Below are positions 2,415 through 28,345 of a stretch of 64,000 nt of DNA, in pieces. Every line of letters begins with the position of its first letter. Positions within the stretch are counted from its first letter, which is position 1. The position numbers and the translations under genes were made by a program. The stretch is from a virus. The notes below the pieces were generated by a model. That model had not been told where the DNA came from and searched no databases. It saw only the letters and a list, made by a program, of their open reading frames with translations. The stretch lies in IMG/VR virus record IMGVR_UViG_3300025073_000026; one strand, written 5' to 3'.

Positions 2415-2497
2415 TACACGGGAGGGGACTTGAACCCCTATGAGTTTACACTCGCTGGGACCTAAACCCAGTGCGGCTGCCGTTACGCCACCCGTGC
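2415..2497 (-). tRNA. tRNA-Leu(UAG)
   Basis: Cloverleaf; CTGGG-TT TAG GT-CCCAG; long variable arm; GTTCAAGTC T-loop. Confidence 0.92.
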
Positions 2498-2537
2498 ATG
2501 TCAAACAACACACCCACTGACTTGCTACTCTAAACAG

Positions 2538-2619
2538 TGCCACCGGAGGAACTCGAATCCCCACACCTTTCGGCGGATGCTCTTGAGGCATCTGCGTCTA
2601 CCAGTTTCGCCACGGTGGC
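2538..2619 (-). tRNA. tRNA-Leu(CAA)
   Basis: GATGC-CT CAA GA-GCATC; long variable arm; A53:U61 T-stem closure. Confidence 0.9.
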
Positions 2620-2648
2620 ATACTATCAAAGAACTATCAGGCCCAACG

Positions 2649-2735
2649 TGCTACCGGGGGGATTCGGACCCCCATGAGGATTAAACCCTCGCCAAATTTT
2701 AAGTCTGGTGCGTCGACCAATTGCGCCACGGTAGC
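2649..2735 (-). tRNA. tRNA-Leu(UAA), C55 variant
   Basis: CCAGA-CT TAA AA-TTTGG; T-loop TCCGAAT. Confidence 0.88.
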
Positions 2736-2766
2736 ATACATTACCCATCTCATAGCCCCTCACCCA

Positions 2767-3063
2767 CTAAGGTCTCTTATAGCACTTGTAACAAATGGGA
2801 CTCCCATCTTCCGTGTAACTAACAGGTAGATCATCCTCTGGAATGGGTTCCTGACACTCCCCACAAAACATCGGTGGGTCCGGGAGATGCCATCTAAGGA
2901 TATCCACTAACGTCTCGATACTCCTTTCACACATCTTCGAACCAAGGTCGATGACATTGGGGGGTAAGGGTCCGATGTGGATGTAGGGTGTTCCCGGGAC
3001 TTCCTCAAACAGAGGGTAGGGTACTGGCCTGCCTTTTCCCTTGGGGAATTCTTTATCGTCCAT
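2767..3063 (-). CDS. hypothetical protein with C-terminal zinc ribbon
   Basis: CGEC...CYKC. Confidence 0.55.
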   Translation of the reverse strand: MDDKEFPKGKGRPVPYPLFEEVPGTPYIHIGPLPPNVIDLGSKMCERSIETLVDILRWHLPDPPMFCGECQEPIPEDDLPVSYTEDGSPICYKCYKRP

Positions 3064-3067
3064 CCCT

Positions 3068-3373
3068 TCAATCCTTATTAGGGCAACCTTGCCCTATGTA
3101 GAGATAGTCCTTGATAGCAAAAGCGTCCTTAGCCTTCTTCGTCAACAAGCCACATACGTAGCGCCCGCTGTGGTTCCTCAGCAATGGGCAAGGTCCACCA
3201 ATATCGCCCCTCTTGTCAGCAGCCACCCGGTAGATACCATATGCGATGGCACACAGAGTTTCCTTACAGCATTTCCCACAACAAGTACAAGGCTTCTTCC
3301 TTTCAGCAGAAGTACCTTTGAGTTCGGCCACCAGTGCTAGGGCTTCCTTGAAGAGATTAGAATCGTGCTTCAT
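3068..3373 (-). CDS. YkgJ-like CxxCxxCC cysteine-cluster protein
   Basis: CTCCGKCC...CPLL...YVCG. Confidence 0.65.
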   Translation of the reverse strand: MKHDSNLFKEALALVAELKGTSAERKKPCTCCGKCCKETLCAIAYGIYRVAADKRGDIGGPCPLLRNHSGRYVCGLLTKKAKDAFAIKDYLYIGQGCPNKD

Positions 3374-3594
3374 CCTTCCACGACTCCTACCAATTCAGGA
3401 ATGTCCATACTCTGGTAAAGGACAGCACCACAACTGAAACAAGCCGCTGAACAGTGCCCATCTTCCCAATCACCCACATCCTCGAAAGTATCAAAGAACG
3501 TTCCGCACTCTCGTTGGGGACTATCACTGGCTGCGAGGCTAGGCAACCCAACATCTCGCCCGCAGTACCATCTGACTTGGACTCTCTTAACCAT
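3370..3594 (-). CDS. hypothetical protein
   Basis: Co-oriented and tightly packed; RBS present. Confidence 0.5.
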   Translation of the reverse strand: MVKRVQVRWYCGRDVGLPSLAASDSPQRECGTFFDTFEDVGDWEDGHCSAACFSCGAVLYQSMDIPELVGVVEG

Positions 3595-3600
3595 AACGCC

Positions 3601-3801
3601 TCATACAACTTCCAGGGTTTTCCACCCACGGGATTTAAGCCGCCGCCAAGGTGTCCTGCTTGGTAGCCATGTCTTTGTGTTGACATGGTTCTTATGCCAC
3701 CAAGCCATGAATACTCCGATGGCCAATTCTCGTGTTCGATGCATTGTCCAATTGAGAACATTGCCATCTGGATTTCTTACCACGTAAACTCGGCTTCCCA
3801 T
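3601..3801 (-). CDS. hypothetical protein
   Basis: GGAGGT RBS before MGSRVY; promoter at 3827-3854. Confidence 0.55.
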   Translation of the reverse strand: MGSRVYVVRNPDGNVLNWTMHRTRELAIGVFMAWWHKNHVNTKTWLPSRTPWRRLKSRGWKTLEVV

Positions 3802-3927
3802 CAACCTACCTCCCCTTCCCACCCCATACTACCCTACCACAAGGATTCCTAACAGGTACAAGTTGCTCCCCACGGTAATCCCATTATGGAGTAGCCTTTC
3901 AATAGCAGCGAGTTTGGAGGCCAACCC

Positions 3928-4311
3928 ATGGACTTGAGAAGTGAAATCCTAAAGACAGCACATGATGTGCCGGAAACCCGTAAGCATCTGCTACCACTCC
4001 TATCCAAAGTAGCAGGAAGGCTTACTCTGTCTCCCGGCAAAGTGGATGAGAAGATGACTGTAACACTTGGCAAAGTCAAACTACAAGCCCGGAGCAATGG
4101 AAGCTTTGACACTGCCATGCTCTCAGCAGGGTTCTATGCTAAGAAGACCGGCAGGACTATGTACCTGTACTCAGGTAACTCCTACATGAACTGGGTATGG
4201 CGAGTTTCCTACAAGGCCAGTGACTACTTAGATCCCATTGGCAATACCGGGGACGTCGTGTTCTCCGTATCACCGGAACTGGTAGTACAGAGACATGAAA
4301 TCCAGAGATAG
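3928..4311 (+). CDS. hypothetical protein with shared N-terminal leader motif
   Basis: GGAGG RBS; N-terminus LRSEILKTAHDVPETRKHLLPLL matches the ORFs at 19900(-) and 63267(-). Confidence 0.75.
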   Translation: MDLRSEILKTAHDVPETRKHLLPLLSKVAGRLTLSPGKVDEKMTVTLGKVKLQARSNGSFDTAMLSAGFYAKKTGRTMYLYSGNSYMNWVWRVSYKASDYLDPIGNTGDVVFSVSPELVVQRHEIQR

Positions 4312-5306
4312 CTAGGGATTGGCGGAAACATCAATGGGGGCCCTCCACATGACTTTGGAAGTAGATCTCCGAGCACCCCATCCAAATGGTTCTCTGGGTA
4401 AAGGTCACTCGGGAACACTTCACGTAGAGTCAATCCCTTCCGCTTGGCCATGTCACGCTTCTTTCCAACGGCAGTATCATAATCCTTATGCCCATGCCAT
4501 AGGCCGAAATACTCCAGCCAGATATCTTTGTCAGGCAGATAGAAATCACAAGTGCAGCGACTCTGAGGGTACCTCTTTTGAGTGGTGTGCTGTATCCCGT
4601 GTGCCGATAGCCAATCGTCCACAATCTTTTCCGAGATACTATCCGCCCGATGACCGTCTTTGCAAGGAATCCCTTTCCGGGTGTACCATTCTGTATTAGG
4701 GGGGATGCCTAGAGACTCCATAGCTTTATTCCATGATCCAAAGAACCGGGAAGCCGCACCTGTCAACTTATGCCCGACTTCTTTGGTTGTGGGTGTTCTT
4801 CCGAACTCAATGTAGAGCTGCTGAATCCGAGATATGACCTCATCTTTGGTAAGGGGGAGTGAACCAAAATGTAGGATCTGTCCGCAAATCTTAGAACAAG
4901 CACGGGCGTCCTTATTTATGGGATGAAAACTATTACCACATATAACGCAATCCTTGGCAGCATGAATGGCTCCAGAGTTGGTTTCTTGAAGATGCCGTAT
5001 CTGTGCTTGGCGAGTCCGTTCCTTGGACTCTAGACTGCGGGGTGCTCTCCGTTGGTTGTTGTAGGTGGCAGCGCATGATTTGGAACAGAACACTCGTTTT
5101 GACGGGTTTTTGCGGCTGGGGGTTACATACACAGGTTTCCCACAAGTCAGGCAATTTTGGTCTTCGCCCACCCGGCGACTGTTCCCCTGGCAGTCTGGGG
5201 AACAGAACTGTAACCAACCCTGCTTTTCAGCTTCATTGGCTCTATTTACTGGCCGATCAAAGGCTTTGCCACAATGATCACAAACAACCTGTCTGATTCT
5301 GGACAT
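4224..5306 (-). CDS. putative homing endonuclease (zinc ribbons + PD-(D/E)XK/DUF559-like nuclease)
   Basis: Repeated CxxC...FCSxxC zinc motifs, GSWNKAM helical repeat, SEKIVDDWL...CDFYLPDKDIWLEYFG nuclease signature; lies directly downstream of tRNA-Pro. Confidence 0.7.
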   Translation of the reverse strand: MSRIRQVVCDHCGKAFDRPVNRANEAEKQGWLQFCSPDCQGNSRRVGEDQNCLTCGKPVYVTPSRKNPSKRVFCSKSCAATYNNQRRAPRSLESKERTRQAQIRHLQETNSGAIHAAKDCVICGNSFHPINKDARACSKICGQILHFGSLPLTKDEVISRIQQLYIEFGRTPTTKEVGHKLTGAASRFFGSWNKAMESLGIPPNTEWYTRKGIPCKDGHRADSISEKIVDDWLSAHGIQHTTQKRYPQSRCTCDFYLPDKDIWLEYFGLWHGHKDYDTAVGKKRDMAKRKGLTLREVFPSDLYPENHLDGVLGDLLPKSCGGPPLMFPPIPSYLWISCLCTTSSGDTENTTSPVLPMGSK

Positions 5307-5338
5307 AGGTAGTGCCTCCCTGTGGAGGCACTACCTAT
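5305..5338 (-). promoter_or_regulatory. RBS-sequestering hairpin of the endonuclease gene
   Basis: Perfect 15-bp stem with 4-nt loop containing GGAGG and the AT of the ATG. Confidence 0.8.
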
Positions 5339-5369
5339 AAGGAAAATAACGGAGTGGCAGACTTTGGAG

Positions 5370-5446
5370 TCGGGGTGATTGGATTTGAACCAACGAAAAC
5401 CTCCTGGTCCCAGGCCAGGCGCTCTACCAAACTGAGCTACACCCCG
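5370..5446 (-). tRNA. tRNA-Pro(UGG), C33 variant
   Basis: CCTGG-CC TGG GA-CCAGG; 8-nt variable loop. Confidence 0.82.
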
Positions 5447-5468
5447 ATATTGTCAAACCAACTTCACT

Positions 5469-5678
5469 CTACTCCACAGGCACACATATGAACCGTCTGT
5501 AGGTCTTCCTACCCTTCCCGTCGCTGGAAATCCTGACCGCTCCACCCATAGGGCAGTTGAAGTTCCACTCTGGCAAACCCTCCTTATGCGTATGTGGCTT
5601 TGCCAGTCCGCACTTCGTTGGGCCTGCACAGCCTTTCTCATCAGCATAATCACAGATGAACTGTTGGGTCTTTTTCAT
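5469..5678 (-). CDS. small Cys-rich hypothetical protein
   Basis: ORF track; co-oriented cluster. Confidence 0.5.
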   Translation of the reverse strand: MKKTQQFICDYADEKGCAGPTKCGLAKPHTHKEGLPEWNFNCPMGGAVRISSDGKGRKTYRRFICVPVE

Positions 5679-5684
5679 TGGCTT

Positions 5685-5915
5685 CTATTCCCACGCAAAA
5701 CCATTGATATTCCTCCGTTCAGACCAGTATCCCTCAGCGACCTTCTTGGTAAGGTAGCCATCGCCTTCACATAGACTGCACGCCCCTGAGCTGTCACAAC
5801 AGGGCGGGGGCATGTAGTTGCACCTACAGTCATCGTCCCAATGGGGCTTCCTGCATTCGTTCCCTGTGCCATCGCACTTGGGGCAGGAAACCAGCCCATC
5901 ACCAAGATCCGTCAT
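5685..5915 (-). CDS. small zinc-finger protein (CxxCxGxG repeats)
   Basis: CPKCDGTG and CSLCEGDG. Confidence 0.6.
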   Translation of the reverse strand: MTDLGDGLVSCPKCDGTGNECRKPHWDDDCRCNYMPPPCCDSSGACSLCEGDGYLTKKVAEGYWSERRNINGFAWE

Positions 5916-6157
5916 CTTGGAAACCTCCGTTCACAGGCTTCAATGGCTTCTGTTGCCGTGTCGTACCTGTCTGCCCCGAGTGTGTTGAAACCGCAAGCCC
6001 ACTGCTTTCCCTGTTTGCCAATCATGCCGACGTGACGAGGGGTGCATCCATACCATTCAAGCACATTATAGGCTTCCGTGAAGCCATCCATCCTGACCTG
6101 TACCAACTCGTACTTGTCAGGGACATTAGGGAATGTCTTTTCCAACTTGCTAGCCAT
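5912..6157 (-). CDS. hypothetical protein
   Basis: GGAGG RBS; coupled overlaps. Confidence 0.55.
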   Translation of the reverse strand: MASKLEKTFPNVPDKYELVQVRMDGFTEAYNVLEWYGCTPRHVGMIGKQGKQWACGFNTLGADRYDTATEAIEACERRFPR

Positions 6158-6599
6158 CGTTAGCCTCCTTGGTAGGACAACGTGTCATGTGCTGAGGTGC
6201 CATCCCCTCTTCGTTACAGGTTGCGGCTTCAGCCGGGGAGATAGGTCCGCCACACTTGAAGCAACTATACCCTTCTTTCAGCGTCCGTAGAACCGCTCTG
6301 GCGTCATCTTCTGTTGAGACAGTAGGAATCACACCGATAGCATGGTCTTCTTGGATACGGAGCCTATTGGCGAGCGCAGCAATTTGGGCTGCTAGGGTCA
6401 CCACCTTCTCTGTGAACCAGATGTCCTGATGAGAACCCGAGGAACACATTGCAGCCATCTCTCCGGTGAGATTGGCGAATTGCGCACGGTTATGGTCCAT
6501 GTCAGCTGCCATGAGTAAAGTCGTGTCCTTCTGCCCATCTGCAAAGGGTACGCCAACCAGTTCGTTGTAGGTGAGGAAACGGTTCTTTGCCATGATCAA
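6150..6599 (-). CDS. hypothetical protein
   Basis: Coupled overlaps; C-terminal CxxC. Confidence 0.55.
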   Translation of the reverse strand: MIMAKNRFLTYNELVGVPFADGQKDTTLLMAADMDHNRAQFANLTGEMAAMCSSGSHQDIWFTEKVVTLAAQIAALANRLRIQEDHAIGVIPTVSTEDDARAVLRTLKEGYSCFKCGGPISPAEAATCNEEGMAPQHMTRCPTKEANDG

Positions 6600-6901
6600 T
6601 CCTCCCAGACCGTGATAACAGCGCCATTGTTGGGTTCGGAGTGCAGCCGTTTCCCAGTCAATTCACACGCCATCTTGTCAACCTGCTGCCAGCGTTCAAA
6701 CCCCGTACCCCAATCGCTGTGCAGGGGATTCATGATCCCATTCTCCGTGTAGATGACCAGAAGGGCATCCGGCTTCCCCTTAACCCAACCCCCGGTATCT
6801 TCCTTGGGGGTACGAACATCGGCCTTCCAGTTCGGGGATTCCGTCAAAAAGAACCCCAGCACTTTCTCGATTGCCTGTGTATACGCTTCCTTGGCCGTCA
6901 T
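6596..6901 (-). CDS. hypothetical protein
   Basis: Promoter motif upstream at 6946-6973. Confidence 0.55.
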   Translation of the reverse strand: MTAKEAYTQAIEKVLGFFLTESPNWKADVRTPKEDTGGWVKGKPDALLVIYTENGIMNPLHSDWGTGFERWQQVDKMACELTGKRLHSEPNNGAVITVWED

Positions 6902-6971
6902 TTCCGTATCTCCCGGTTCAGGTTTCCACCTCCTGTCTACACCTGTACTACCCGGTTCTTGAAAACCCTAA

Positions 6972-7556
6972 CTAAAGACTTGGACATGGGATCCCTGCTT
7001 TCTGAAGGTACAGCGTCTTTTCCCCTATGTACTCCAACACAGCAGCTGGCACCAGTCCCTTGCAGGACTCCGAATTCCCAGTCCACTGCAATTCATTGCG
7101 GATATTGGTGCTGGAGATATCCGGGATCTTGATAAGGTGAGATGAGGGTACTCCATCCCGGCCTATGACCCATACAGGCACCATGGATAGTATCCCCCTA
7201 GCCTTGTGCCAGTTGTCAAAGTCAGCCCACTCGTCCTGGCCGACTATGAGATTGAAGATGTGATCTGGGTACTTCTCTTTCAGGTGCTTTAGCAGGTCCA
7301 CCGTGTACTTGGACTGAATGACACCCTCTACGGACATGACCTTAACTTTGCTGTAGTTAGTAGGGTCAAAAGCACGGACACACATCTGAATCCGATCCTC
7401 AAACGGAGCCATCTTCTTCCCAAAAGCATGTTCCCAGCAGGGAATGATCCACACTTGGTCAAACCCACCTACTGCTAAGGCATAGGTGACTGCAAAGACG
7501 TGCCCCATGTGAGGCGGGTCGAATGCTCCACCGAAGATACCAATTCGTTTCATCAT
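6972..7556 (-). CDS. nadD: nicotinate/nicotinamide-nucleotide adenylyltransferase
   Basis: IGIFGGAFDPPHMGH (HxGH), YTVDLL, IVGQD...W, ISSTNIR. Confidence 0.9.
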   Translation of the reverse strand: MMKRIGIFGGAFDPPHMGHVFAVTYALAVGGFDQVWIIPCWEHAFGKKMAPFEDRIQMCVRAFDPTNYSKVKVMSVEGVIQSKYTVDLLKHLKEKYPDHIFNLIVGQDEWADFDNWHKARGILSMVPVWVIGRDGVPSSHLIKIPDISSTNIRNELQWTGNSESCKGLVPAAVLEYIGEKTLYLQKAGIPCPSL

Positions 7557-8200
7557 TACTCCACTACTTGAACAACAGTCAGTCCCACCCTGATAATCTT
7601 GTCTGCATATGCTACTGCTGCTTTGATGATATCCAAATGGTCAAAGGCAAGCCGTGGAAGGCTATCCACGTAGAACCATTTTGCTTTGGTTGCATCGTCC
7701 TGTGCCTTCAGGTCATATATTTCCTTAGCATACGCTGTGAAGGCTGTGGAGATCACCCGTCCTCTAGGGTCTCTATCGGGTTTGCTGAATACCCCGAGCA
7801 ACTTCACATGCGTGAGTTCAAGGTTGGTTTCCTCTCGTACCTCTCGCCTAAGAGCGTCCTCTACCTCCTCATCCGGGTTGACAAATCCACCGGGGAGTGC
7901 CCAGCAGCCATAGAATGGCTCGTCTTTTCCCCCACGCTGGATTAGGAGTACTTTCATCTTGATATTGCTCAAGTCAAAGATCACAGCATCGACCGTGTTG
8001 TTTGCCTTGGGATACTTGTAGACGTGGCAGGTTTGGATGAATGCCGCTACGTCATAGGCACTCATGCCCGGAGGTAAACCCGAGAAGCACTCTGGGATCT
8101 GCGGGGGGTCCGTATAGGCACTCAATTCTTCCTTCAAGAGACGGCCAAGTTCCTGTACGACCACCTTAGCGTGCTTTTCAAGGTCTACGAGATTTGCCAT
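7556..8200 (-). CDS. NUDIX hydrolase (NrtR/ADP-ribose pyrophosphatase-like)
   Basis: WALPGGFVNPDEEVEDALRREVREETNL NUDIX box; RDPRGRVIS; LAFDH. Confidence 0.88.
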   Translation of the reverse strand: MANLVDLEKHAKVVVQELGRLLKEELSAYTDPPQIPECFSGLPPGMSAYDVAAFIQTCHVYKYPKANNTVDAVIFDLSNIKMKVLLIQRGGKDEPFYGCWALPGGFVNPDEEVEDALRREVREETNLELTHVKLLGVFSKPDRDPRGRVISTAFTAYAKEIYDLKAQDDATKAKWFYVDSLPRLAFDHLDIIKAAVAYADKIIRVGLTVVQVVE

Positions 8201-8610
8201 TACGTCAACTCCTTGAGCCATTCAGGTAGCCCTTTCCTAATGACTTCTGCGGCAAAATCAGGATCGGTCATGCACTCGTAACCTAGGGATTCCGTTATGA
8301 GAAGAAAGTGCTTGTACTTTCGCTTATTGGAAAGCCTGGACTCTGCTTCGGCCTTGATAGCAGCCCTCAACCCAACCAATAGTTGGTAAAGCCCCGGTGT
8401 ACCCGGCTTTGAATCCAAATACCCATATGAGACACCACTAGATCGCCCCATCAGATCACCGCAGGTGACTCTACAATGCTCGATCACCCTAACGATCTGA
8501 TCATCCGAGAGAACACAGATGACTTCCTCGGATTCTATCTCTTCTGCGGTGGGAGTATACCCCAGGCTATTGATGGGTCTATCGTCCGTTATGAAGAATC
8601 CACCTGCCAT
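8200..8610 (-). CDS. hypothetical protein
   Basis: GGAGGT RBS and promoter (8632-8659) before MAGGFF; TAATG overlap with the NUDIX gene. Confidence 0.6.
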   Translation of the reverse strand: MAGGFFITDDRPINSLGYTPTAEEIESEEVICVLSDDQIVRVIEHCRVTCGDLMGRSSGVSYGYLDSKPGTPGLYQLLVGLRAAIKAEAESRLSNKRKYKHFLLITESLGYECMTDPDFAAEVIRKGLPEWLKELT

Positions 8611-8668
8611 TGCCCCTACCTCCACACCCCTTACTACCCTAACCCATGTATCCCTAACAGGATATCCG

Positions 8669-9049
8669 CTAACCGAAGAGCCCACCTAGTCCGAACATGC
8701 CGCCCGCGGATACCCCGGCAAAGAAATACAATTTAGTTCCATTCCACTGTAAGGTACCGATCGGCAGATGGTATTCCGCAATAGCTGGCCTGTCCCACTC
8801 GATCCCCTCAGAAAGGACCAACATCTTGGCAGATCCCATAGGGCTGTCCTTCTCATTAGGGCACTTTGCTGTCCATAGTGCGTGCATTTCCTTGATTTTG
8901 TCGTCCTGCATGAGGAGCACCCAGGGTACATTTGGGTTATCGCTAGGTTCCACGCCCATGACCTGCTTGTAGGGCCCGGGTATTTGAACGATTCCCGGGA
9001 TGATCTCTTGAAGCTTAATGAGATCGAGTGACTTCCGCACCAACTTCAT
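8669..9049 (-). CDS. hypothetical protein
   Basis: ATGA-coupled ORF. Confidence 0.55.
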   Translation of the reverse strand: MKLVRKSLDLIKLQEIIPGIVQIPGPYKQVMGVEPSDNPNVPWVLLMQDDKIKEMHALWTAKCPNEKDSPMGSAKMLVLSEGIEWDRPAIAEYHLPIGTLQWNGTKLYFFAGVSAGGMFGLGGLFG

Positions 9050-9489
9050 TCAGCCCCCTTCCAATATCCCTTGTGCAAATTCTGTACCTTCAACGCCTTG
9101 TATTTGGTAGATTCCAACCGGAAAGTAGGGAAGTCCTGATGATGCAGACAAGCCAAATTCCCTCTACGGAGACTTACGGGACGCCCACCACACACTGGGC
9201 AAAGAGACACGTTCGGGTTTCCATCTGGGAAGATGACGAGATACTGATCGCATGTCTCACAAGTAGGTCGCTTAGGCTCGGGAACGCCCGGACATCCGAC
9301 TACTTGGCTGTCTGGTTCAAAGTAGTGCGGATTGCTGTAGGCACTTTTCTGGTACGGAAGGATCCGTGCCCCGCAATCTGATAACGGAATCGGGGGCGCA
9401 GCACCGGGAGCATTGGCGTTGAAACATCCATTTGTCTCATATCGTGGGCAACTCAGGCATCCAGCATGGCATACACTCACTAGTTTCAT
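9046..9489 (-). CDS. Cys-rich hypothetical protein
   Basis: Several CxxC pairs; coupled overlaps. Confidence 0.55.
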   Translation of the reverse strand: MKLVSVCHAGCLSCPRYETNGCFNANAPGAAPPIPLSDCGARILPYQKSAYSNPHYFEPDSQVVGCPGVPEPKRPTCETCDQYLVIFPDGNPNVSLCPVCGGRPVSLRRGNLACLHHQDFPTFRLESTKYKALKVQNLHKGYWKGAE

Positions 9490-9938: not shown

Positions 9939-9966
9939 AGATCGGGGAGTGCTTTCCAGGCATCGA

Positions 9967-21219: not shown

Positions 21220-21527
21220 AACCGATCAAGCCCGAGCCGCAAGCAAATCCGGCTCCTGTCTCTTGCACCACTGAATAGGTGAGATTTCGCCAGATGGTGT
21301 TAGTAACCATTCCCCTCCCGTAAGAGGATCACAACAGTTGCATCCATCCAACTACCCCATACAAGTATCGCAACCTGTACAGTAATAGGCTGCTTGTACC
21401 CCTTACGTGCTACGGGGGGCGGATTCAAACCGCTCGTTCAAGCATCCGTCTCCTGCGACTTATCAAAGAGCATCGTTGCTCTTACATCCTACACTACCCG
21501 ACTCACGAAAAGTCTAACAAGAAAAAG

Positions 21528-21613
21528 TGCGAGGAGAGGAACTCGAATCCCCACGGGAAGCAACTCCCACAAGAACCTGAATCTTGCGCGGCTACCAGTT
21601 TCGCCATCCTCGC
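21528..21613 (-). tRNA. tRNA-Leu(CAG)
   Basis: CAAGA-TT CAG GT-TCTTG; long variable arm; A53:U61. Confidence 0.9.
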
Positions 21614-21617
21614 ATAG

Positions 21618-21702
21618 CGGAGAGGGGGAGATTCGGACCCCCGGTGGTGTGACCCACGTCTGCTTTCCAAGCAGATGCCCTAGACCTCTAGACGACCTCT
21701 CC
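21618..21702 (-). tRNA. tRNA-Ser(GGA), C55 variant
   Basis: TCTGC-TT GGA AA-GCAGA; T-loop TCCGAAT. Confidence 0.88.
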
Positions 21703-21703
21703 G

Positions 21704-21779
21704 TGGTGCCTCCCCCACGAGTTGAACGTGGATCTCCGATTCTTCAGACCGGCGCTTAGACCACCTAAGCTAGAGAGGC
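21704..21779 (-). tRNA. tRNA-Phe(GAA)
   Basis: CCGGT-CT GAA GA-ATCGG; encoded CCA. Confidence 0.9.
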
Positions 21780-22477
21780 TTATTGGGCGCATCCAATTGC
21801 TTCTTTGTCACTAGGAACCCACATCTTCCTTCCAAGATATACTCTACGTCCTCAACCCGCCAAACCATCTTACCATAAGTGACTTCATCAGCAGGGACTT
21901 CCAACATGAATCCTATGATGTCCAGTCGTTCTTGTGGGGCTTCAACCCCCACCCACTTGAGTTGGGCAAACTGGCAATTTTCCAGCCCCCACAGTTCCTT
22001 CCCCGCCCAGATCTTGAACGCTGCCCTGGGGCCACCTTTGACAGTTGGGGTTACATTCATCTCTGGTAGGCTCTCATCCAATTCTTTGAACACGGGTTTG
22101 ATAGGCGTCACAGGGGTCGGATCCGAAACAGGCTCCCCTGTTGGCCAAAACTTATGACAGAACTCTTGCTGCTGCAAACCCAATCTCAGATATGTGACCA
22201 GAGTCCCACTACCCTCTTTGACAAAGATGCCTTTCCTATCAGCTGTAAGCAGGTACACCCCACCATGTTCGCTAGAACGACCACATAGAGGCATGACCGT
22301 TTGGTAGTCCACCTCAGTAGCAGTGCAAACTGCATACCTAACGTCGCCCTCAGCGGCCCCCGGATGATGCTCTCTGTAACGCCTTAGAGCGTGTGTAGTC
22401 ACGAAAATGGGTACTTCCATAGGTATCGGCTCCTTTCGTGTCAGGAACAGACGCAAGAGTGCCCTGTTCACGGACAC
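21770..22477 (-). CDS. hypothetical protein; N-terminal half resembles small RNase/toxin folds
   Basis: FVTTHALRRYREH...GIFV....LVTYL; own promoter at 22479-22507; function speculative. Confidence 0.55.
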   Translation of the reverse strand: MSVNRALLRLFLTRKEPIPMEVPIFVTTHALRRYREHHPGAAEGDVRYAVCTATEVDYQTVMPLCGRSSEHGGVYLLTADRKGIFVKEGSGTLVTYLRLGLQQQEFCHKFWPTGEPVSDPTPVTPIKPVFKELDESLPEMNVTPTVKGGPRAAFKIWAGKELWGLENCQFAQLKWVGVEAPQERLDIIGFMLEVPADEVTYGKMVWRVEDVEYILEGRCGFLVTKKQLDAPNKPL

Positions 22478-22518
22478 ATACTACTCTACTGCCCTATAGA
22501 GGTAACAGGAGAAAACGG

Positions 22519-22593
22519 TCGGGGTGATTGGATCCTCGAACCAGCGACACCGAAACCCCAATCTCGTGGGCTACCTGGCTGCCCTACATCCCG
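22519..22593 (-). pseudogene. degenerate tRNA-Pro(GGG)
   Basis: tRNA-like arms, but 6-nt anticodon loop, 9-nt T-loop and mismatches in the acceptor and T stems. Confidence 0.65.
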
Positions 22594-22608
22594 ATTAGAC
22601 TCAAAAGG

Positions 22609-22683
22609 TGTCCCTGGCAAGACTTGAACTTGCGCCCTACAGTTCCGGAAACTGTCGCTCTGATCCGACTGAGCTACAGGGAC
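22609..22683 (-). tRNA. tRNA-Arg(CCG)
   Basis: ACAGT-TT CCG GA-ACTGT. Confidence 0.9.
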
Positions 22684-22744
22684 AAAAACGGATTCACCGT
22701 GGTATAGTGTCTCCCGGTGGTATGTTTAACAACTTTGAGGTATT

Positions 22745-23263
22745 GTGATGACTGATTACAGTGTAGGACCGGCTATTGATCGGCTTACTGTACAGGTGCG
22801 GGAACTTACCGGGGTGCTCAAAAGGCACTTCAAAGAAATGGGGGTGCCCGAAAACGCAATAGCACCTGAATCCGCAGAGGTGGCCTTTGAGCAGGCTATG
22901 GATTTCCTGACAAAGCTGCGCACCAAAACCCTGGAAGAACCCCTCCGTGTACATCCCGGGATAGCACCTTTAGGAAAGAATCCCTTAGCGGATGCGTTTG
23001 AGGGTGTGGAGCTGGATACCGGCCTCAGGGTGGCCGTGGTCCTTATGGGGTACAAGGAGTACAGCGACCTTAGACAGCTCCATGGCAATCATTTCAGGAT
23101 GGAAGATCGGGTTGTGAGACTCCGGAAAGGAATCATGGGGTCGATATGGGGAGCGTCTATTATACGGAACAAAGAAATCCCCCCTGGCAAAGTCTATGTC
23201 ATTGCTGAACGGACAGACCCGGCTGGGACCCATCTTTATCATGCCATCAGCATAATCCGCTAG
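22745..23263 (+). CDS. hypothetical protein resembling a C-terminal segment of a major capsid protein
   Basis: AFEGVE...LRVAVVLMG..EYSDLR...LRKGIMGSIWGASIIRNKEIPPGKVYVIAE recalled as similar to HK97-fold MCP A/P-domain segments; GAGGT RBS. Confidence 0.55.
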   Translation: MMTDYSVGPAIDRLTVQVRELTGVLKRHFKEMGVPENAIAPESAEVAFEQAMDFLTKLRTKTLEEPLRVHPGIAPLGKNPLADAFEGVELDTGLRVAVVLMGYKEYSDLRQLHGNHFRMEDRVVRLRKGIMGSIWGASIIRNKEIPPGKVYVIAERTDPAGTHLYHAISIIR

Positions 23264-23298
23264 CGCACTCCTGCAAACCTCTCAGATATTCTACTAGG

Positions 23299-23371
23299 CA
23301 GCGGTGGGAGGATTCGAACCTCCGTAGTGACCGGTCCAGAGCCGGTTGCCTTACCACTTGGCGACACCGCT
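23299..23371 (-). tRNA. tRNA-Gln(CUG)
   Basis: ACCGG-CT CTG GA-CCGGT; G73. Confidence 0.9.
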
Positions 23372-23564
23372 ATAAGATAGGAGTCCTGATTGGCACTCTC
23401 TTGACTTCCAACGTGTTCGGATCAATGATGGTTCTCCAACCTATGATCCGGCGTTCATGCTTAGGAGCAATTGGCTCTTCAGATGCCAGTAGGTTGTTGT
23501 CCGGTGTGTCATAGCCAAGATTGTCTGGGTGGAAGTAATAGAGCATGGTAGCACCCCCATACAT
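23370..23564 (-). CDS. hypothetical protein
   Basis: Small ORF between tRNAs; likely start MLYYF. Confidence 0.45.
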   Translation of the reverse strand: MYGGATMLYYFHPDNLGYDTPDNNLLASEEPIAPKHERRIIGWRTIIDPNTLEVKRVPIRTPIL

Positions 23565-23584
23565 CGACTATACCACAGACATAG

Positions 23585-23656
23585 CGGGAGTGACGAGAAT
23601 CGGACTCGCCTCATTGGCGTGACAAGCCAACCGCCTCACCAGAAGCGTACACCCCC
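23585..23656 (-). tRNA. tRNA-Asp(GUC), C55 variant
   Basis: TTGGC-TT GTC AC-GCCAA; G73; T-loop TCCGATT. Confidence 0.85.
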
Positions 23657-23674
23657 ATGAGCACGGAAAGGAAG

Positions 23675-23747
23675 GGTGAGTGATCGGGATCGAACCGACG
23701 ATAGAAGGGACCACAGCCCTTTGCCCTACCACTAGGCGACACTCACC
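23675..23747 (-). tRNA. tRNA-His(GUG) with genomically encoded G-1
   Basis: AAGGG-CT GTG GT-CCCTT; G-1 opposite C73. Confidence 0.9.
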
Positions 23748-23751
23748 ATCT

Positions 23752-24081
23752 TCAACTACTTTTCTGGTCACTCCCTGCACAATCACCCCAGAAGCGACCT
23801 TCGTGGGTTCGCATCAATCCACAGGCATACTTCCTAGCGGAGCCAGTGCCAGTATGTTCCACTACTGGAGCACCACAATCCGGGCAGGGCTTATTCATGA
23901 CCCACCCATCCAGATACGCCCGATCCTTACCAGCACACTCCATGGAACACCATGCCATCTCCCACTCTTCATCGTAGAAGCGAGTATCCCCCAGAGAAAC
24001 ACGCTTCCCACAACAAGGGCAATTGAATTCATCCTTGTACCGATGGATGACGGAACTCTTGAGTGTTGCTAGAAATGCCAT
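23752..24081 (-). CDS. zinc-finger hypothetical protein
   Basis: CPCCG, WCSMEC, CPDCG; promoter at 24102-24129. Confidence 0.6.
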   Translation of the reverse strand: MAFLATLKSSVIHRYKDEFNCPCCGKRVSLGDTRFYDEEWEMAWCSMECAGKDRAYLDGWVMNKPCPDCGAPVVEHTGTGSARKYACGLMRTHEGRFWGDCAGSDQKSS

Positions 24082-24132
24082 GCGAATCACCTCCACAGGC
24101 ATACTACCCGGCACAGCAGGATCCTAACAGAG

Positions 24133-24457
24133 CGGGTGTGGGAGGAATTGAACCTCCAACCTACGGATTACCCGTGCCCCCAAGTTTCCTTGGGACGTGG
24201 ACTATCTCATCATCCTAATCTGCTAGGATGCCGGGGGCTGACGGGGCTTATTGCTTTGGCTCTGCTCATCCCCTAGTCTCTGCACCTTCCAACCTACACA
24301 CTAAAACCAATTCGGTTGGTTCGGCTCAGGGTCACCATGCCCACCCGTAGAGGTGGGTTTAGGCTTCCTTGAATTCTCCCGGTTTGTCATGCTGGGTTAC
24401 CCCAACAAGCTGCATTTTCCTACAGTCCGTTGCCCTAACCAATTGGGCCACACACCC
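24133..24457 (-). tRNA. tRNA-Asn(GUU) split by a group I intron (exons 24422-24457 and 24133-24170)
   Basis: Spliced loop ACGGA-CT GT|T AA-TCCGT; G73. Confidence 0.85.
24171..24421 (-). mobile_element. group I intron (251 nt, no ORF), IC3-like
   Basis: P AATTCAAGGAAGC, Q GACCCTGAGCC, R GTGCAGAGACTAG, S GAGATAGTCC; P1 exon CUGU pairs with IGS GCAG (U.G at the splice site); terminal omegaG. Confidence 0.88.
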
Positions 24458-24470
24458 ATCGCTAAAACAG

Positions 24471-24545
24471 TAGCAGGAGAGGGAATTGAACCCCCGACTG
24501 ACGCAGAATATGGGTCTGCCGCACTACCAACTGTGCTATCCTGCT
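24471..24545 (-). tRNA. tRNA-Met/Ile2(CAU), C33 variant
   Basis: GCAGA-CC CAT AT-TCTGC; A1-U72; 7-nt variable loop. Confidence 0.8.
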
Positions 24546-24546
24546 A

Positions 24547-24622
24547 TGGTGGGAATGGCGGTAGTCGAAACCGCACTCTCAGGTTGAAAACCTGATGTCC
24601 AGAACCGCTAGACCACATTCCC
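24547..24622 (-). tRNA. tRNA-Glu(UUC)
   Basis: TCAGG-TT TTC AA-CCTGA; encoded CCA; U53:A61. Confidence 0.88.
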
Positions 24623-24634
24623 ATCCTGCAACAG

Positions 24635-24707
24635 TCGGAACGGGCAGAGTCGAACTGCCGACCTAACGGTTATCAACCGTTTGCTCTACCAACTGAGCTA
24701 CGCTCCG
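24635..24707 (-). tRNA. tRNA-Ile(GAU)
   Basis: AACGG-TT GAT AA-CCGTT. Confidence 0.9.
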
Positions 24708-24719
24708 AAACTATCCAAC

Positions 24720-24812
24720 ACGGAGGCCATGGGGGTGGTCTCTACACAGACCGTCACTTTGGGGTAGGTGTGTAGCCTTTTCCCAAAATTCAGACCCCCA
24801 TGGACTCTCCGT
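24720..24812 (-). ncRNA. novel structured RNA: three-way junction with kissing loops
   Basis: Outer stems ACGGAG/CTCCGT and CCATGGGGGT/ACCCCCATGG; two inner hairpins with complementary loops CTACAC and GTGTAG; strand inferred from the flanking tRNAs. Confidence 0.6.
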
Positions 24813-24814
24813 AG

Positions 24815-24888
24815 TCGGAGTGAGTGGATTTGAACCACCGGCCATCTGAGCCCGACTCAGAAGCTCTACCAGGCTGAGCTACACTCCG
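24815..24888 (-). tRNA. tRNA-Pro(CGG)
   Basis: TCTGA-GT CGG GC-TCAGA (unusual G32/C38). Confidence 0.85.
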
Positions 24889-24892
24889 ATAG

Positions 24893-24965
24893 CGGGCGAT
24901 ACAGAACTCGGATCTGTATTCCAGGATTCGTAATCCTGTGTCCTCTCCAATTAGACTAATCGCCC
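24893..24965 (-). tRNA. tRNA-Arg(ACG), C55 variant
   Basis: CAGGA-TT ACG AA-TCCTG; T arm ACAGA-TCCGAGT-TCTGT. Confidence 0.85.
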
Positions 24966-24972
24966 GTAAATG

Positions 24973-25194
24973 TCACGATTGATTTGCACGAAGACGCTTG
25001 GCTTTGTGCATCCGATTTAAAGTTGGCACATGAAGCCACCACTCCTTCCCGGTATCCCGACATCGGAAACCTATTCGGAAATTCTCTTTATCCTCTAGGG
25101 AGTCTATAATCCAATCATCGTGCCCTGCACCATATCTGCCCATGGCATCAAATAGCTGATCCAGATCCCCGAAGTCTCCGCTTTTCATCATCAC
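24973..25194 (-). CDS. hypothetical protein
   Basis: AAGGTG RBS; lies between tRNAs. Confidence 0.5.
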   Translation of the reverse strand: MMMKSGDFGDLDQLFDAMGRYGAGHDDWIIDSLEDKENFRIGFRCRDTGKEWWLHVPTLNRMHKAKRLRANQS

Positions 25195-25226
25195 GGCACC
25201 TTTTGTTGTTTCATCCCATTTCCAAC

Positions 25227-25303
25227 TGGAGGCGTCACCCGGATTTGAACCGGGGCAATGCCGAATTTGCAGTCCGGTGCTTTACCACCTTAGCTATGAC
25301 GCC
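25227..25303 (-). tRNA. tRNA-Cys(GCA)
   Basis: CCGGA-CT GCA AA-TTCGG; U73 and encoded CCA. Confidence 0.92.
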
Positions 25304-25320
25304 ACATGCTTCAATCTCGG

Positions 25321-25462
25321 CCGGGGGACTGGGACTTGAACCCAGAATTTGCTTGTGTGTTTAGCCCGATTAGGAACCTTTGCAGGCTCCCGAGTGAGCA
25401 AACAGGTTGCTTTTTAGATAGCTCCAAAAGGCTATTGCGTCTACCAGTTCCGCCATCCCCGA
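25321..25462 (-). ncRNA. tRNA-like RNA with 8-nt anticodon loop and about 70-nt branched variable arm
   Basis: Leu-type D arm GGCGGAACTGGTAGACGC; ATAGC-CTTTTGGA-GCTAT; canonical T arm CTGGG-TTCAAGT-CCCAG; insert contains GTTTGCT/AGCAAAT and a GGAGCCT-GCAA-AGGTTCC hairpin. Confidence 0.75.
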
Positions 25463-25485
25463 GAACACAAACCATCAACAAACAG

Positions 25486-25558
25486 TGGAGCTAACCCGGA
25501 TCGAACGGGCAACCTCAGGCTTGCAAAGCCCGCGCTCTCCCAATTGAGCTATAGCCCC
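25486..25558 (-). tRNA. tRNA-Ala(UGC)
   Basis: G3:U70; CGGGC-TT TGC AA-GCCTG. Confidence 0.92.
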
Positions 25559-26103
25559 AGACACTGATTCCATGTGTTCGTCATCAGTGCATCTAATGAC
25601 CGGACGATTGGTAAAGCCGGGTCTATCAGATACATCTGCATCTCCACGTCCCTAGTCCTAGGGTATCCTGGTTCAATCCCAATGCAGACAGCCTTACGTC
25701 TGAGCGGAAGATTCGCCCTCGGCCCAAAATTCGGGGGATATGCACACTCATTGTGCCATTCTGCCAGAGTAACGTACCGGCCCAACTCAAATAGCACAAT
25801 GGGTTGGATGGTTTCCTTGCAGAACCAGAACGAAATAACATCAGCCTCACACAATGCTTTCTGCTCCCACTCAATTTGGCCATCTGCCGCCTTCGGGTCA
25901 TGGATAGGGAAGTTGGCTCTACGTGGATTCAAGATGTGGATACAGGAATCTGTCCACTCTGCATCCGCTGTAAAACCACGGAGTCTTTCTATGGCTTCCT
26001 TCTGCCAATCCGGACATCCAGTGATGCCACCAGCAAGGAATAGGGGTGTATCATTAAGGCTGATTTCAAATGGCTCGATGGCTTCTGTAACCTTGATCTG
26101 CAT
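25549..26103 (-). CDS. nucleoside 2-deoxyribosyltransferase-like protein
   Basis: LFLAGGITGCPDWQ, LNPRR, QIEWE...L..ADVISFWF, PIVLFELG. Confidence 0.8.
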   Translation of the reverse strand: MQIKVTEAIEPFEISLNDTPLFLAGGITGCPDWQKEAIERLRGFTADAEWTDSCIHILNPRRANFPIHDPKAADGQIEWEQKALCEADVISFWFCKETIQPIVLFELGRYVTLAEWHNECAYPPNFGPRANLPLRRKAVCIGIEPGYPRTRDVEMQMYLIDPALPIVRSLDALMTNTWNQCLGL

Positions 26104-26348
26104 CAGGGCTTAACCTCCAAAGAATGCCCATCCTTATCAAACTTGAAGGGGCAGACAAAATCACATTCCCCTGCACCCAAGTACTCTACCGTAGCACACT
26201 TGGATGCACACTCAGGGAAGGGTAGGTGCTGTAGGTTTCCTGCTGGCAGAGGATTCTTTGCCACTTCAAGATTCGCTATCTCCATGTCTGGGCCATCGTC
26301 TGTCTCGTCCCATCGGATATCACTCATTGCCCTTGTCCTCCACATCAT
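26103..26348 (-). CDS. hypothetical protein
   Basis: TGATG overlap with the next gene. Confidence 0.5.
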   Translation of the reverse strand: MMWRTRAMSDIRWDETDDGPDMEIANLEVAKNPLPAGNLQHLPFPECASKCATVEYLGAGECDFVCPFKFDKDGHSLEVKP

Positions 26349-26352
26349 TCAG

Positions 26353-26426
26353 CGTCCCTGAGTGGATTTGAACCACCGGCTTCCCCTTTAGGAGAGGGGC
26401 ACTCTAATCCTCTGAGCTACAGGGAC
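26353..26426 (-). tRNA. tRNA-Arg(CCU)
   Basis: CCCCT-CT CCT AA-AGGGG. Confidence 0.9.
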
Positions 26427-26622
26427 AATCAACAACTTCCCACTCGCCAATCCACAAGATGAACACTCCCCAACTCTCTTTGCCATTAGGGTGCTTCAGA
26501 TCAACTGAAAACTCACTGTCTTTTGGGTTCACGGATATGACTTCACTCACATGGCCATTCTTGGGATTCCGGAATTTCATGCCGGGCACGATCTGTTCGT
26601 CGGATAGGTCCTTAACCTTCAC
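26404..26622 (-). CDS. hypothetical protein
   Basis: GAGGTG RBS; 3' end overlaps the tRNA 5' end. Confidence 0.5.
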   Translation of the reverse strand: MKVKDLSDEQIVPGMKFRNPKNGHVSEVISVNPKDSEFSVDLKHPNGKESWGVFILWIGEWEVVDCPCSSED

Positions 26623-26631
26623 TCGGCACCT

Positions 26632-26892
26632 CTACACATCATACAAACCCCTACCTGGCAGATCAAACATCTGAATCATGCTCTCTGGCACCTTCAGGTG
26701 CTTGAGAGCATATTTCCGACCTTCTCCCCCAAGAGTATGGAAATCCATGAGCAGGTTAGTGGTACCAAAAGTACCGGGTAGGCTGACAACGAGCCTGACT
26801 TTGTCTGTGTCACTCTTTCCATAGTGGAATATCTCGATTGCTTTGACCTTAATCTCTATCTTGAATCTCATCTTAGCCGTTTTGGTAGCCAC
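26632..26892 (-). CDS. hypothetical protein
   Basis: GGAGG RBS; overlaps the coaD end. Confidence 0.55.
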   Translation of the reverse strand: MATKTAKMRFKIEIKVKAIEIFHYGKSDTDKVRLVVSLPGTFGTTNLLMDFHTLGGEGRKYALKHLKVPESMIQMFDLPGRGLYDV

Positions 26893-27382
26893 GTTCGTCC
26901 TCCCTGTACTTGGCCTTCAGTGGTCCCACCACTTGGGGTGGCACAAACAACTCGACCCTACCGTGATGCTGTGCTAGTTCTCTAACAGCCGAAGAACTGA
27001 CGTAAAGCATATCCCGATCGGTCATGAGGTAGATGAATTCAATACCAGGAGCCAAACGCCTATTCATCAGGGTCATCTGAAATTCATACTCAAAATCACT
27101 GACGGCCCGCAACCCCCGGAGGACCAGTTTGGTGCCGACTGCCCTAACGAAGTCCACCAGCAATCCGCTAAAGGGGCGCACAGACACCCTAGGCTCATCA
27201 TCAAACACCGACTTGATGATACCTGCACGTTCATCTAGCGTGAACAAGGATTTCTTCTGCCCATTACAGGCAGGGGCAATGATCACCCTGTCTATGACTT
27301 CCAGACCACGCCGGATGATATCTACATGTCCGTTAGTGATAGGGTCAAAGGATCCGGGATAGATGGCTATTCGTTCTGGCAT
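26873..27382 (-). CDS. coaD: pantetheine-phosphate adenylyltransferase
   Basis: AIYPGSFDPITNGHVDII, LRGLRAVSDFEYEFQM..MNR, YVSSSAVRE. Confidence 0.95.
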   Translation of the reverse strand: MPERIAIYPGSFDPITNGHVDIIRRGLEVIDRVIIAPACNGQKKSLFTLDERAGIIKSVFDDEPRVSVRPFSGLLVDFVRAVGTKLVLRGLRAVSDFEYEFQMTLMNRRLAPGIEFIYLMTDRDMLYVSSSAVRELAQHHGRVELFVPPQVVGPLKAKYREDERGYQNG

Positions 27383-27600
27383 GGTGCATCCTCAGTGCCA
27401 AAGGCATCAATGGTTGAACTCATCCCACTCAATCCCCCTAGGATACCGTGGACACCTATATACACTTTGGAGAAAACCTCTGTCGCTAGGTTCATATCCC
27501 TGAAGGGTACAAACATCAGGACGATTGTACCAAGGAAGATAGCTAGACAAGTGAAGAAGCAGGCTTTGGTTGCCCACGGTTCCGAGCTATTGTCGTGCAT
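27367..27600 (-). CDS. small membrane protein
   Basis: Two hydrophobic helices. Confidence 0.5.
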   Translation of the reverse strand: MHDNSSEPWATKACFFTCLAIFLGTIVLMFVPFRDMNLATEVFSKVYIGVHGILGGLSGMSSTIDAFGTEDAPCQNE

Positions 27601-27603
27601 GGC

Positions 27604-27804
27604 TTACAACTCCTCTTGAGTGGGATCCCGGAAGTTCTCAGGGTGGTATCCCCAGTGGACCTTACCATCCTTAGTGGCAACGGCCACATGACCCGGCATA
27701 TTCTGTATCTCGCCTAGAAGGAGTACCTTTTCGCCATTGTTCCACGGGTACTGCCCATCATATCCCTCCGGTACATCGGTTATCTGGATGCGTAAGATTC
27801 TCAT
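27604..27804 (-). CDS. hypothetical protein
   Basis: GGAGGT RBS and promoter (27829-27856) before MRILRI. Confidence 0.6.
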   Translation of the reverse strand: MRILRIQITDVPEGYDGQYPWNNGEKVLLLGEIQNMPGHVAVATKDGKVHWGYHPENFRDPTQEEL

Positions 27805-28123
27805 GTGTCCACCACCTCCACACCTTCTTACTACTCTGATGTAGCAATGACTAACAGGAAAACGTTTGGCAGAGGATAGGCAGTACTCGAAACTGCACCG
27901 GATGGCATCAGCCACCCTTGCGAGACCCCGCATGGCACAATGGCCTTGCGTCCTCCATCTTCTATCCCCCGGAAATTCACAATGCAATGTACGCTCTGAC
28001 CAGATGGGTTGCTGGTCAGGCATACGATTGTACTTCGGTTGTCAAAGATCGGTTGACTCCTGATGCCTGTTTCGCACCGTCCCTCCCCGTCCAAATCTCA
28101 GGGGAGAAAGAGTCTAGCCAAGG

Positions 28124-28198
28124 TGGGACGAAGAGGACTTGAACCTCCAACCTGACGGTTAAGAGCCGCCTGCTCTAATCCAATTGAGCTATCGTCCC
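28124..28198 (-). tRNA. tRNA-Lys(CUU)
   Basis: GGCGG-CT CTT AA-CCGTC. Confidence 0.9.
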
Positions 28199-28273
28199 AT
28201 GATCTTTTCAAAGAGCGTCCTGTAACCAACCAATCCGTGGCTTCTGTACCGTAGGCACCTGAATTGTGCTGAG

Positions 28274-28345
28274 TGAGGATGGTTGGATTTGGACCAACGA
28301 CCTAAGGCTTAAAGGGCCTTTGCTCTTCCGCTAAGCTACATCCCC
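28274..28345 (-). tRNA. tRNA-Lys(UUU), C33 and C55 variant
   Basis: AAGGC-CC TTT AA-GCCTT; T-loop TCCAAAT. Confidence 0.82.

Follow-up and report, generated by a model that had tools for sequence, protein, structure and literature searches.

The genes considered here lie in a stretch of 64,000 nucleotides (hereafter, the window) recorded in IMG/VR as IMGVR_UViG_3300025073_000026. Matches to PHROG and Pfam, together with relatives among large phages, show that the window belongs to a large uncultured phage, the genome of which extends beyond it. In this window, ARAGORN detects 31 transfer RNA (tRNA) genes, every one on the minus strand, and Rfam supplies one more, a tRNA-Asp gene skipped by ARAGORN that was folded by hand. 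These genes form a dispersed array (Table 1), the tRNA set of which covers all 20 amino acids with one gene per anticodon, that is, without redundancy. The loops were taken from the ARAGORN structure strings and by hand, and position 8 was re-derived via the pairing of the acceptor stem. In tRNAs, the U-turn uridine is U33 in the anticodon loop and U55 in the T-loop; U55 becomes pseudouridine 55, and no modified tRNA position is described as more universally conserved. In the array, it is mainly this last nucleotide that is replaced.

Altogether, 15 substitutions are found in 12 genes, nine at position 55, four at position 33 and two at position 8. The nine tRNAs with C55 (Leu-UAA, Gln-UUG, Thr-CGU, Val-UAC, Trp, Ser-GGA, Asp, Arg-ACG, and Lys-UUU) all have a T-loop of the form TCCRANN. 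The four genes with C33 (Pro-UGG, Val-UAC, Met-CAU, and Lys-UUU) all read C32-C33, and C8 is found in Trp and Tyr. A preliminary description of this DNA had listed the same 15 changes in the same 12 tRNAs, and ARAGORN structures combined with manual reading match that list exactly. Its remarks that the change is always to C, and that T54 is left unaltered, also hold within the window.

Table 1. Coordinates of the tRNA genes carrying C8, C33 or C55 and of other features of the window.
Feature	Substitution	Position	Strand	Evidence or remark
Dispersed tRNA array		2414..28345	-	32 tRNA genes, an intron-split tRNA-Asn and a 142-nucleotide tRNA-like gene (ARAGORN, Rfam, manual)
tRNA-Leu(UAA)	C55	2648..2735	-	T-arm GGGGG TCCGAAT CCCCC; Rfam 52.6 bits
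tRNA-Pro(UGG)	C33	5369..5446	-	Anticodon loop CCTGGGA
tRNA-Gln(UUG)	C55	12257..12332	-	ARAGORN structure and manual reading
tRNA-Thr(CGU)	C55	18629..18701	-	Rfam 61.1 bits
tRNA-Val(UAC)	C33 and C55	19963..20037	-	ARAGORN structure and manual reading
tRNA-Trp(CCA)	C8 and C55	20253..20328	-	D-loop begins with G; Rfam tRNA-Sec 34.5 bits
tRNA-Tyr(GUA)	C8	20595..20681	-	CCA encoded; ARAGORN
tRNA-Ser(GGA)	C55	21617..21702	-	Rfam 45.3 bits
tRNA-Asp(GUC)	C55	23585..23656	-	Rfam 47.5 bits and manual fold
tRNA with anticodon CAU (Met, possibly Ile2)	C33	24470..24545	-	ARAGORN structure and manual reading
tRNA-Arg(ACG)	C55	24892..24965	-	Rfam 57.1 bits
tRNA-Lys(UUU)	C33 and C55	28273..28345	-	Rfam 65.3 bits; sole C55 tRNA with A57
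tRNA-Ser(GCU)		20147-20234		T55; T-arm otherwise that of tRNA-Leu(UAA)
Pro-like tRNA pseudogene		22517-22593		Adjoins Arg-CCG; 6-base anticodon loop, 9-base T-loop
tRNA-Asn(GUU)		24133-24457		Anticodon loop interrupted by a group I intron (24178-24432; Rfam RF00028, 71 bits)
G-1 of tRNA-His		23746-23747		Encoded opposite C73
Thg1-like protein (tRNA 5'-end guanylyltransferase / 3'-5' polymerase family)		31934..32791	-	Pfam PF04446, E=3.4e-31; immediately upstream of the array
HAD domain of "Swiss Army Knife" RNA-repair proteins		30412..31116	-	Pfam PF18143, E=9.3e-27; also immediately upstream of the array; context only
Possible RNA ligase, truncated at the window edge		1..864	-	Pfam PF09414, E=2e-4, below the curated cut-off (weak); beside three tRNA-Leu genes
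Apyc1-family anti-Pycsar metallo-beta-lactamase-fold protein		37643-38512		E=3e-29; known phage counter-defence type
RelA/SpoT-like gene inside the array		18794-19927		Homologues up to 55% identity, few with PF04607
NAD/ADP-ribose gene set: two PARP-domain, ARH, NADAR, NUDIX, CinA, two cytidylyltransferase-like		9970-12298, 33755-34225, 44844-46526, 7559-8221, 55253-55834		

Apart from these substitutions, the genes are well formed. All 30 seven-base T-loops of the window retain T54, C56, and A58. In the variant genes, the D-loop GG is present in every case, the acceptor stems are paired at seven positions out of seven and the stems contain no mismatch. The gathering threshold of Rfam RF00005 is passed by 29 window genes, with 30.7-70.4 bits, and eight of the nine C55 tRNAs are among those that exceed it; a second Rfam run gave 45.1 bits for Leu-CAG. 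tRNA-Trp fails this threshold, its only score being to the tRNA-Sec model, and tRNA-Tyr has no Rfam match at E<=1, despite perfect ARAGORN cloverleaves for both. These two C8 tRNAs are the least canonical of the variant genes. Thus, the preliminary statement that the arms are intact stands as regards the stems and the conserved GG, T54, C56, and A58, and has to be qualified for Trp and Tyr. An internal control for the appearance of decay is provided by the Pro-like pseudogene of the array, from which the C55 genes differ markedly. Moreover, the decoding of Asp, Trp, Val, and Thr within the array rests solely on C55 tRNAs. As for the remaining members, the spliced exons of the intron-split tRNA-Asn yield a normal tRNA with the T-loop TTCAATT, hence U55, and the 142-nucleotide tRNA-like gene also has U55.

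The variant nucleotides are not errors of sequencing or assembly, the latter an eventuality that the preliminary description had raised. Over 21 kb covering the array (8794-29918), the window is matched at 100% identity by contigs of three independent samples (ENA ERZ4902915, JGI 3300009285, and JGI 3300003358), which were reached via an array-encoded protein. Up to 32 blocks of the collection contain a record of the phage, its longest recorded contig measuring 140.6 kb.

In order to place the substitutions among large phages, 388 distinct well-formed tRNAs of other large phages were used as a comparison set. These tRNAs come from relatives that were reached via CoaD-like and Thg1-like genes, namely eight IMG/VR records (G001 to G008, 158-481 kb), of which the CoaD-like gene pointed to G001-G007, and several ENA and Logan contigs. 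At position 55, the other phages have U in 385 cases, C in two and G in one, and the window has C in 9 of 31 (Fisher p=1e-9). At position 33, they have U in 363 cases, C in 22 and A in three, and the window has C in 4 of 31 (p=0.12). At position 8, U is found 341 times, A 20, G 18 and C 9 times, and the window departs from U in 2 of 31 (p=0.56). Both outside cases of C55, in Trp and Cys, belong to G001, the Thg1-like protein of which is 55% identical to that of the window. Thus, C55 alone is special to this phage; C33 and non-U8 are general traits of large phages, and the three positions correspond to three separate phenomena. The view of a single directional phenomenon acting at three positions, put forward in the preliminary description, fails on this comparison. 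The scatter of substitutions of all types that it opposed to that view is indeed seen, at least at position 8; at positions 33 and 55, the departures from U are mostly to C.

C33 is an older variant found across large phages and conserved in isoacceptors such as Pro-UGG; it fits the anticodon-loop changes already known in phage tRNAs. In tRNA-Pro(UGG), it is shared by the window, G002 (two copies), G003, G004, and G006. The copies lie at L132:12777, L134:1772, L138:1356, L142:1175, and L152:3305, some having A37 in place of G37, and from their sequences this tRNA looks like a conserved non-canonical lineage. C33 in Val(UAC) is common to the window and G001; the Val(UAC) of the L232 contig is canonical. 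At position 8, any base may replace U in large-phage tRNAs, and the replacement is nearly fixed in tRNA-Tyr(GUA). The nine other large-phage copies of this tRNA read C, C, A, C, G, C, A, C, and one U, so that eight of nine, in addition to that of the window, lack U8 (loci L130, L138, L142, L150, L152, L155, and L231). Such an "anything but U" pattern at the site of 4-thiouridine 8 suggests selection against U8 in phage tRNA-Tyr.

Departures from the usual T-loop also occur in other large phages. In 7 of the 388 tRNAs, U54-A58 is swapped to A54-U58 (loci including L129:11062, L147, L150, and L153), so that an "invariant" tertiary pair changes in a compensated way; as read from the sequences, structure is kept and sequence is altered. 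In a 220-kb contig (SESF01018285.1; L243:3400-10900), 19 tRNAs include four with A54-U58, three with A54-A58, one with G54-G58, and one with C55. Within the window, C55 goes with G57, which is found in eight of the nine C55 tRNAs versus 9 of the 22 U55 tRNAs (p=0.02). Selection against UUCG, or a structural requirement for C55 to be tolerated, could account for this link. Of the 31 window T-loops, 14 have A57, a rate similar to that in the nearer relatives G001, G002, and L233, the other large phages having A in 22%. TTCG is retained in just 9 of the 31 window T-loops versus 288 of 388 elsewhere.

Several T-arms allow the history of C55 to be followed. The T-arm of tRNA-Asp in the window (GCGAG TCCGATT CTCGT) is the same, save at position 55, as that of many bacterial tRNA-Asp and of the contig L233. 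The T-arm and acceptor strand of tRNA-Gln are those of a widespread bacterial form, which has U55; among 185,579 species genomes, three unrelated bacterial metagenome-assembled genomes contain this arm in exactly its C55 form. One and the same Cys T-arm bears U55 in the window and C55 in G001. Because relatives and bacteria bear identical T-arms with U55 (Asp, Gln, and Cys), sequence comparison marks C55 as the product of recent, derived, single-site changes from U to C in this lineage. None of the contigs with the closest Thg1-like proteins carries a C55 tRNA (L232, 73% identity, 0 of 1 tRNA; L233, 69%, 0 of 8; L239, 66%, 0 of 2; L234, 63%, 0 of 11). More generally, the short contigs that carry Thg1-like homologues at 61-75% identity have only U55 tRNAs, pattern scans returned U55 forms or bacterial genes only, and no relative was found for a 235-residue open reading frame (ORF) of the array. 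In Trp, C55 is shared by the window and G001, with T-stems that differ and are compensated, the G001 tRNA having G8. Distant relatives that keep C over compensated stems, as sought by the preliminary description, exist for Trp C55, Tyr C8 and Val and Pro C33.

The nine C55 T-stems are all different and the C55 genes are scattered among U55 genes; the C55 changes are therefore independent events, and acquisition as a block or gene conversion is ruled out. The avoidance of a DNA motif or restriction site is likewise ruled out, since the same T-arm occurs with T55 in Ser-GCU and with C55 in Leu-UAA. TTCGA is mildly depleted in the window (72 observed versus 99 ± 11 expected). No link of C55 to codon usage was seen, the C55 tRNAs reading rare and common codons alike.

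The neighbouring genes, identified by Pfam and PHROG scans of the larger window ORFs, give the context of the array. Among isolated phages, Xanthomonas jumbo phages for example, protein identity to the window reaches about 30% at most. The Thg1-like protein has homologues in all large-phage relatives tested. As tRNA-His already encodes G-1, this protein is, judging from the sequence, more likely a tRNA 5'-end repair polymerase, and it is only a matter of context as far as C55 is concerned. Together with the PF18143 protein and the weak RNA-ligase match, it suggests a candidate tRNA repair kit. Homologues of the RelA/SpoT-like gene sit in unrelated contexts in other large phages, which indicates that this gene is mobile. 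DNA methylases, HNH and RRXRR endonucleases and a TnpB-like gene are also encoded in the window.

The enrichment of C55, its origin by derived single-site changes, the integrity of the genes, and the repair and anti-defence neighbours may together be read as selection for T-loops that cannot be cut. In the explanation that we favour, though tentatively and with less than even confidence, the C55 tRNAs would be unedited and working, and the change of U55 to C would strip them of the uridine that T-loop nucleases need. CbCash, a CRISPR-associated Schlafen nuclease, attacks the T-loop of most E. coli tRNAs at the phosphate directly 5' of U55, and a single substitution of U54 or U55 abolishes the cleavage (PMC13462974). 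CdiA-CT E479 cuts the T-loop between T and pseudouridine (PMC9086364). Endonucleases of this kind require the U54-U55-C56 motif, and selection would have fixed U55C because the U-turn uridine of the T-loop is lost. On structural grounds, C would be the one replacement still able to bond with G18, so that the elbow fold would survive. The nine C55 tRNAs might then act as cut-resistant spares sustaining phage translation once the host tRNAs are destroyed. In Lactiplantibacillus plantarum, tRNA-Gly(UCC/CCC) naturally has C55 and is aminoacylated as well as its C55U mutant (PMC10464925), which argues that C55 needs no correcting. Evasion of nucleases has been proposed for anticodon-loop variants of phage tRNAs (PMC10264068), and the A54-U58 swaps of other phages may be regarded as a parallel that supports the same idea for the T-loop. 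The preliminary description had mentioned escape from modification-dependent host nucleases as an alternative to editing. Escape does fit the data better than editing; however, the nucleases that it fits are those reading the sequence itself, as CbCash does in needing U54 and U55, and not modification-dependent ones.

Several points weigh against resistance to T-loop nucleases. CbCash cuts most tRNAs and only 9 of 32 are changed, so that the other 23 would stay vulnerable. The coincidence of position 55 with a nucleotide required by CbCash is one of position only, the published U55 substitutions being probably not U-to-C (PMC13462974). No T-loop nuclease can be placed in the host. The UC motif that follows the cut of CbCash in anticodon loops was considered as the cause of C33 and was rejected, as only 1 of 11 C34 tRNAs has C33. 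C55 also occurs sporadically in bacteria without any known link to nucleases. Besides the L. plantarum genes, tRNA-Gly(UCC) with C55 is found on two IMG/VR contigs in otherwise canonical bacterial-looking tRNA operons (L096:12172 and L098:13421), where it matches the Lactiplantibacillus type. Finally, apart from Trp in G001, the searches described above gave no close relative bearing diverged C55 genes, from which purifying selection on C55 might have been gauged.

It may also be imagined that no nuclease is involved, U55C being near-neutral or mildly useful and accumulating by drift or weak selection. For instance, a G18-C55 bond could stabilize the elbow without pseudouridine 55 when abundant phage tRNAs outrun TruB. 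This explanation is a serious rival, which we hold to be somewhat less likely than evasion of nucleases. The L. plantarum tRNAs work with C55 (PMC10464925), the exact C55 Gln arm recurs in the three bacterial genomes mentioned above, the association with G57 could be a structural condition, and the small share of changed tRNAs, 9 of 32, also speaks for it. However, nine independent fixations in a single lineage, compared with 2 of 388 elsewhere, would call for a relaxation specific to both lineage and position. Furthermore, T54, C56, A58, and G18G19 stay invariant, and all nine changes are to C.

The agent could instead be encoded by the phage itself: an effector would inactivate the host tRNAs via the T-loop or the anticodon loop, the variant tRNAs of the phage being exempt. 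The window does contain possible RNA or tRNA effectors, namely the RelA/SpoT-like gene in the array and the two PARP-domain proteins, accompanied by ARH and NADAR erasers, and a tRNA set spanning all 20 amino acids would suit such a strategy. Nevertheless, we consider it improbable, since Pfam scans of the larger ORFs reveal no tRNA-cutting nuclease family in the window, the protection would be limited to 9 of 32 tRNAs and no target specificity is known for the window effectors.

The headline of the preliminary description was that a phage or host deaminase turns C8, C33, and C55 into U after transcription, on the precedent of Methanopyrus kandleri, where C8 of tRNA is edited to U8 by CDAT8. 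The resemblance lies in the genomic C8 found where U is expected in two window tRNAs, and the precedent does not extend to positions 33 and 55. That all 15 window changes are to C would suit editing, and most of the phage genome lies outside the window. In addition, large relatives each encode a protein with the cytidine deaminase (CDA) fold, and in G001 a distance of about 2 kb separates its gene from the Thg1-like gene and from the array of tRNAs. However, in agreement with what had been noted, the 64-kb window shows no zinc-deaminase signature in any of its six frames, and no deaminase or THUMP family is matched by Pfam among the 103 larger ORFs examined. Searching for CDA or THUMP-fused deaminases beyond the window did not help the case: one CDA-fold gene is present in each of five large relatives irrespective of C55, that is, in G001, which has C55 tRNAs, as in G002, G003, G005, and G006, which have none, and no THUMP domain is found in the large-phage relatives searched. 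In contrast to M. kandleri, moreover, the relatives have A or G at position 8 more often than C, a state that C-to-U editing could not repair. Three structurally unrelated sites would require three specificities, the C55 tRNAs of L. plantarum are charged without correction (PMC10464925), and the constant use of C is explained by the keeping of a pyrimidine and by pairing with G18. Hence, editing as such finds no support and appears most improbable. The same low likelihood is given to a phage-borne version of it in which U would be restored at positions 33, 55, and 8, the genes evading recognition at the DNA or precursor level while the mature tRNAs become canonical. Finally, despite one true pseudogene in the array and the poor Rfam scores of Trp and Tyr, it is scarcely credible that the variant genes are pseudogenes of a big redundant array or sequencing or assembly errors, given three agreeing independent assemblies, perfect stems and other invariant bases, anticodons that are each single-copy (with Asp, Trp, Val, and Thr in need of the C55 genes), changes restricted to one position and one base, and distant relatives sharing Trp C55, Tyr C8, and Val and Pro C33 across compensated stems.

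These observations bear on how strictly U55 is needed. A virus in which this uridine is replaced in 9 of 32 tRNAs, the surroundings being kept, indicates that the position can be given up, and its loss suggests a penalty imposed on U55 by something in the host. The array offers a natural test set, in which C55 tRNAs stand beside U55 tRNAs of the same T-arm. Should C55 confer resistance, it would represent the first counter-defence at the tRNA T-loop, and the idea of nuclease-proof phage tRNAs would reach past the anticodon loop. More broadly, the tRNAs of large phages systematically break "invariant" rules, as illustrated by C33 in Pro-UGG, non-U8 in Tyr, and the A54-U58 swaps. This recurrence has to be kept in mind in tRNA annotation and before such variants are called decay. 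In the literature searched, no T-loop variant in a phage tRNA and no C55-rich phage set was encountered, U55C appearing only as an engineered negative control. Immune nucleases that cut the T-loop entered the literature only in 2026, and for the authors of the CbCash study the targeting of phage tRNAs "remains an open question" (PMC13462974).

Besides CDAT8, three known systems can be compared with the array. CbCash (PMC13462974) and CdiA-CT E479 (PMC9086364) both cut between positions 54 and 55, the very positions that vary in the window (55) and in other large phages (54). They are presumed selective agents and not kin of the finding, and none is known in the host of this phage. The tRNA-Gly(UCC/CCC) genes of L. 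plantarum (PMC10464925) resemble the window genes in having C55 in a T-loop TCCGA with G57, and their products are charged normally. In contrast, they belong to a cellular genome, concern a single amino-acid family and are not linked to defence, whereas C55 in the window affects nine isoacceptors and is derived with respect to U55 relatives. The nearest parallel is given by phage tRNAs whose anticodon-loop substitutions are held or demonstrated to confer resistance to host tRNA nucleases, described in mycobacteriophage C1 and T5-like phages (PMC10264068, PMC11555353, PMC11464382). Like the present genes, these are phage-encoded, otherwise intact and located in large arrays, and they differ from the host type at nucleotides that a nuclease needs; C33 of the window falls directly in this class. 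There, particular isoacceptors are concerned, whereas resistance of the C55 tRNAs would be conferred through the T-loop. Thus, phage tRNAs altered at nuclease-critical nucleotides were already known, and what the window adds is the site, position 55 of the T-loop, and its extension to nine isoacceptors.

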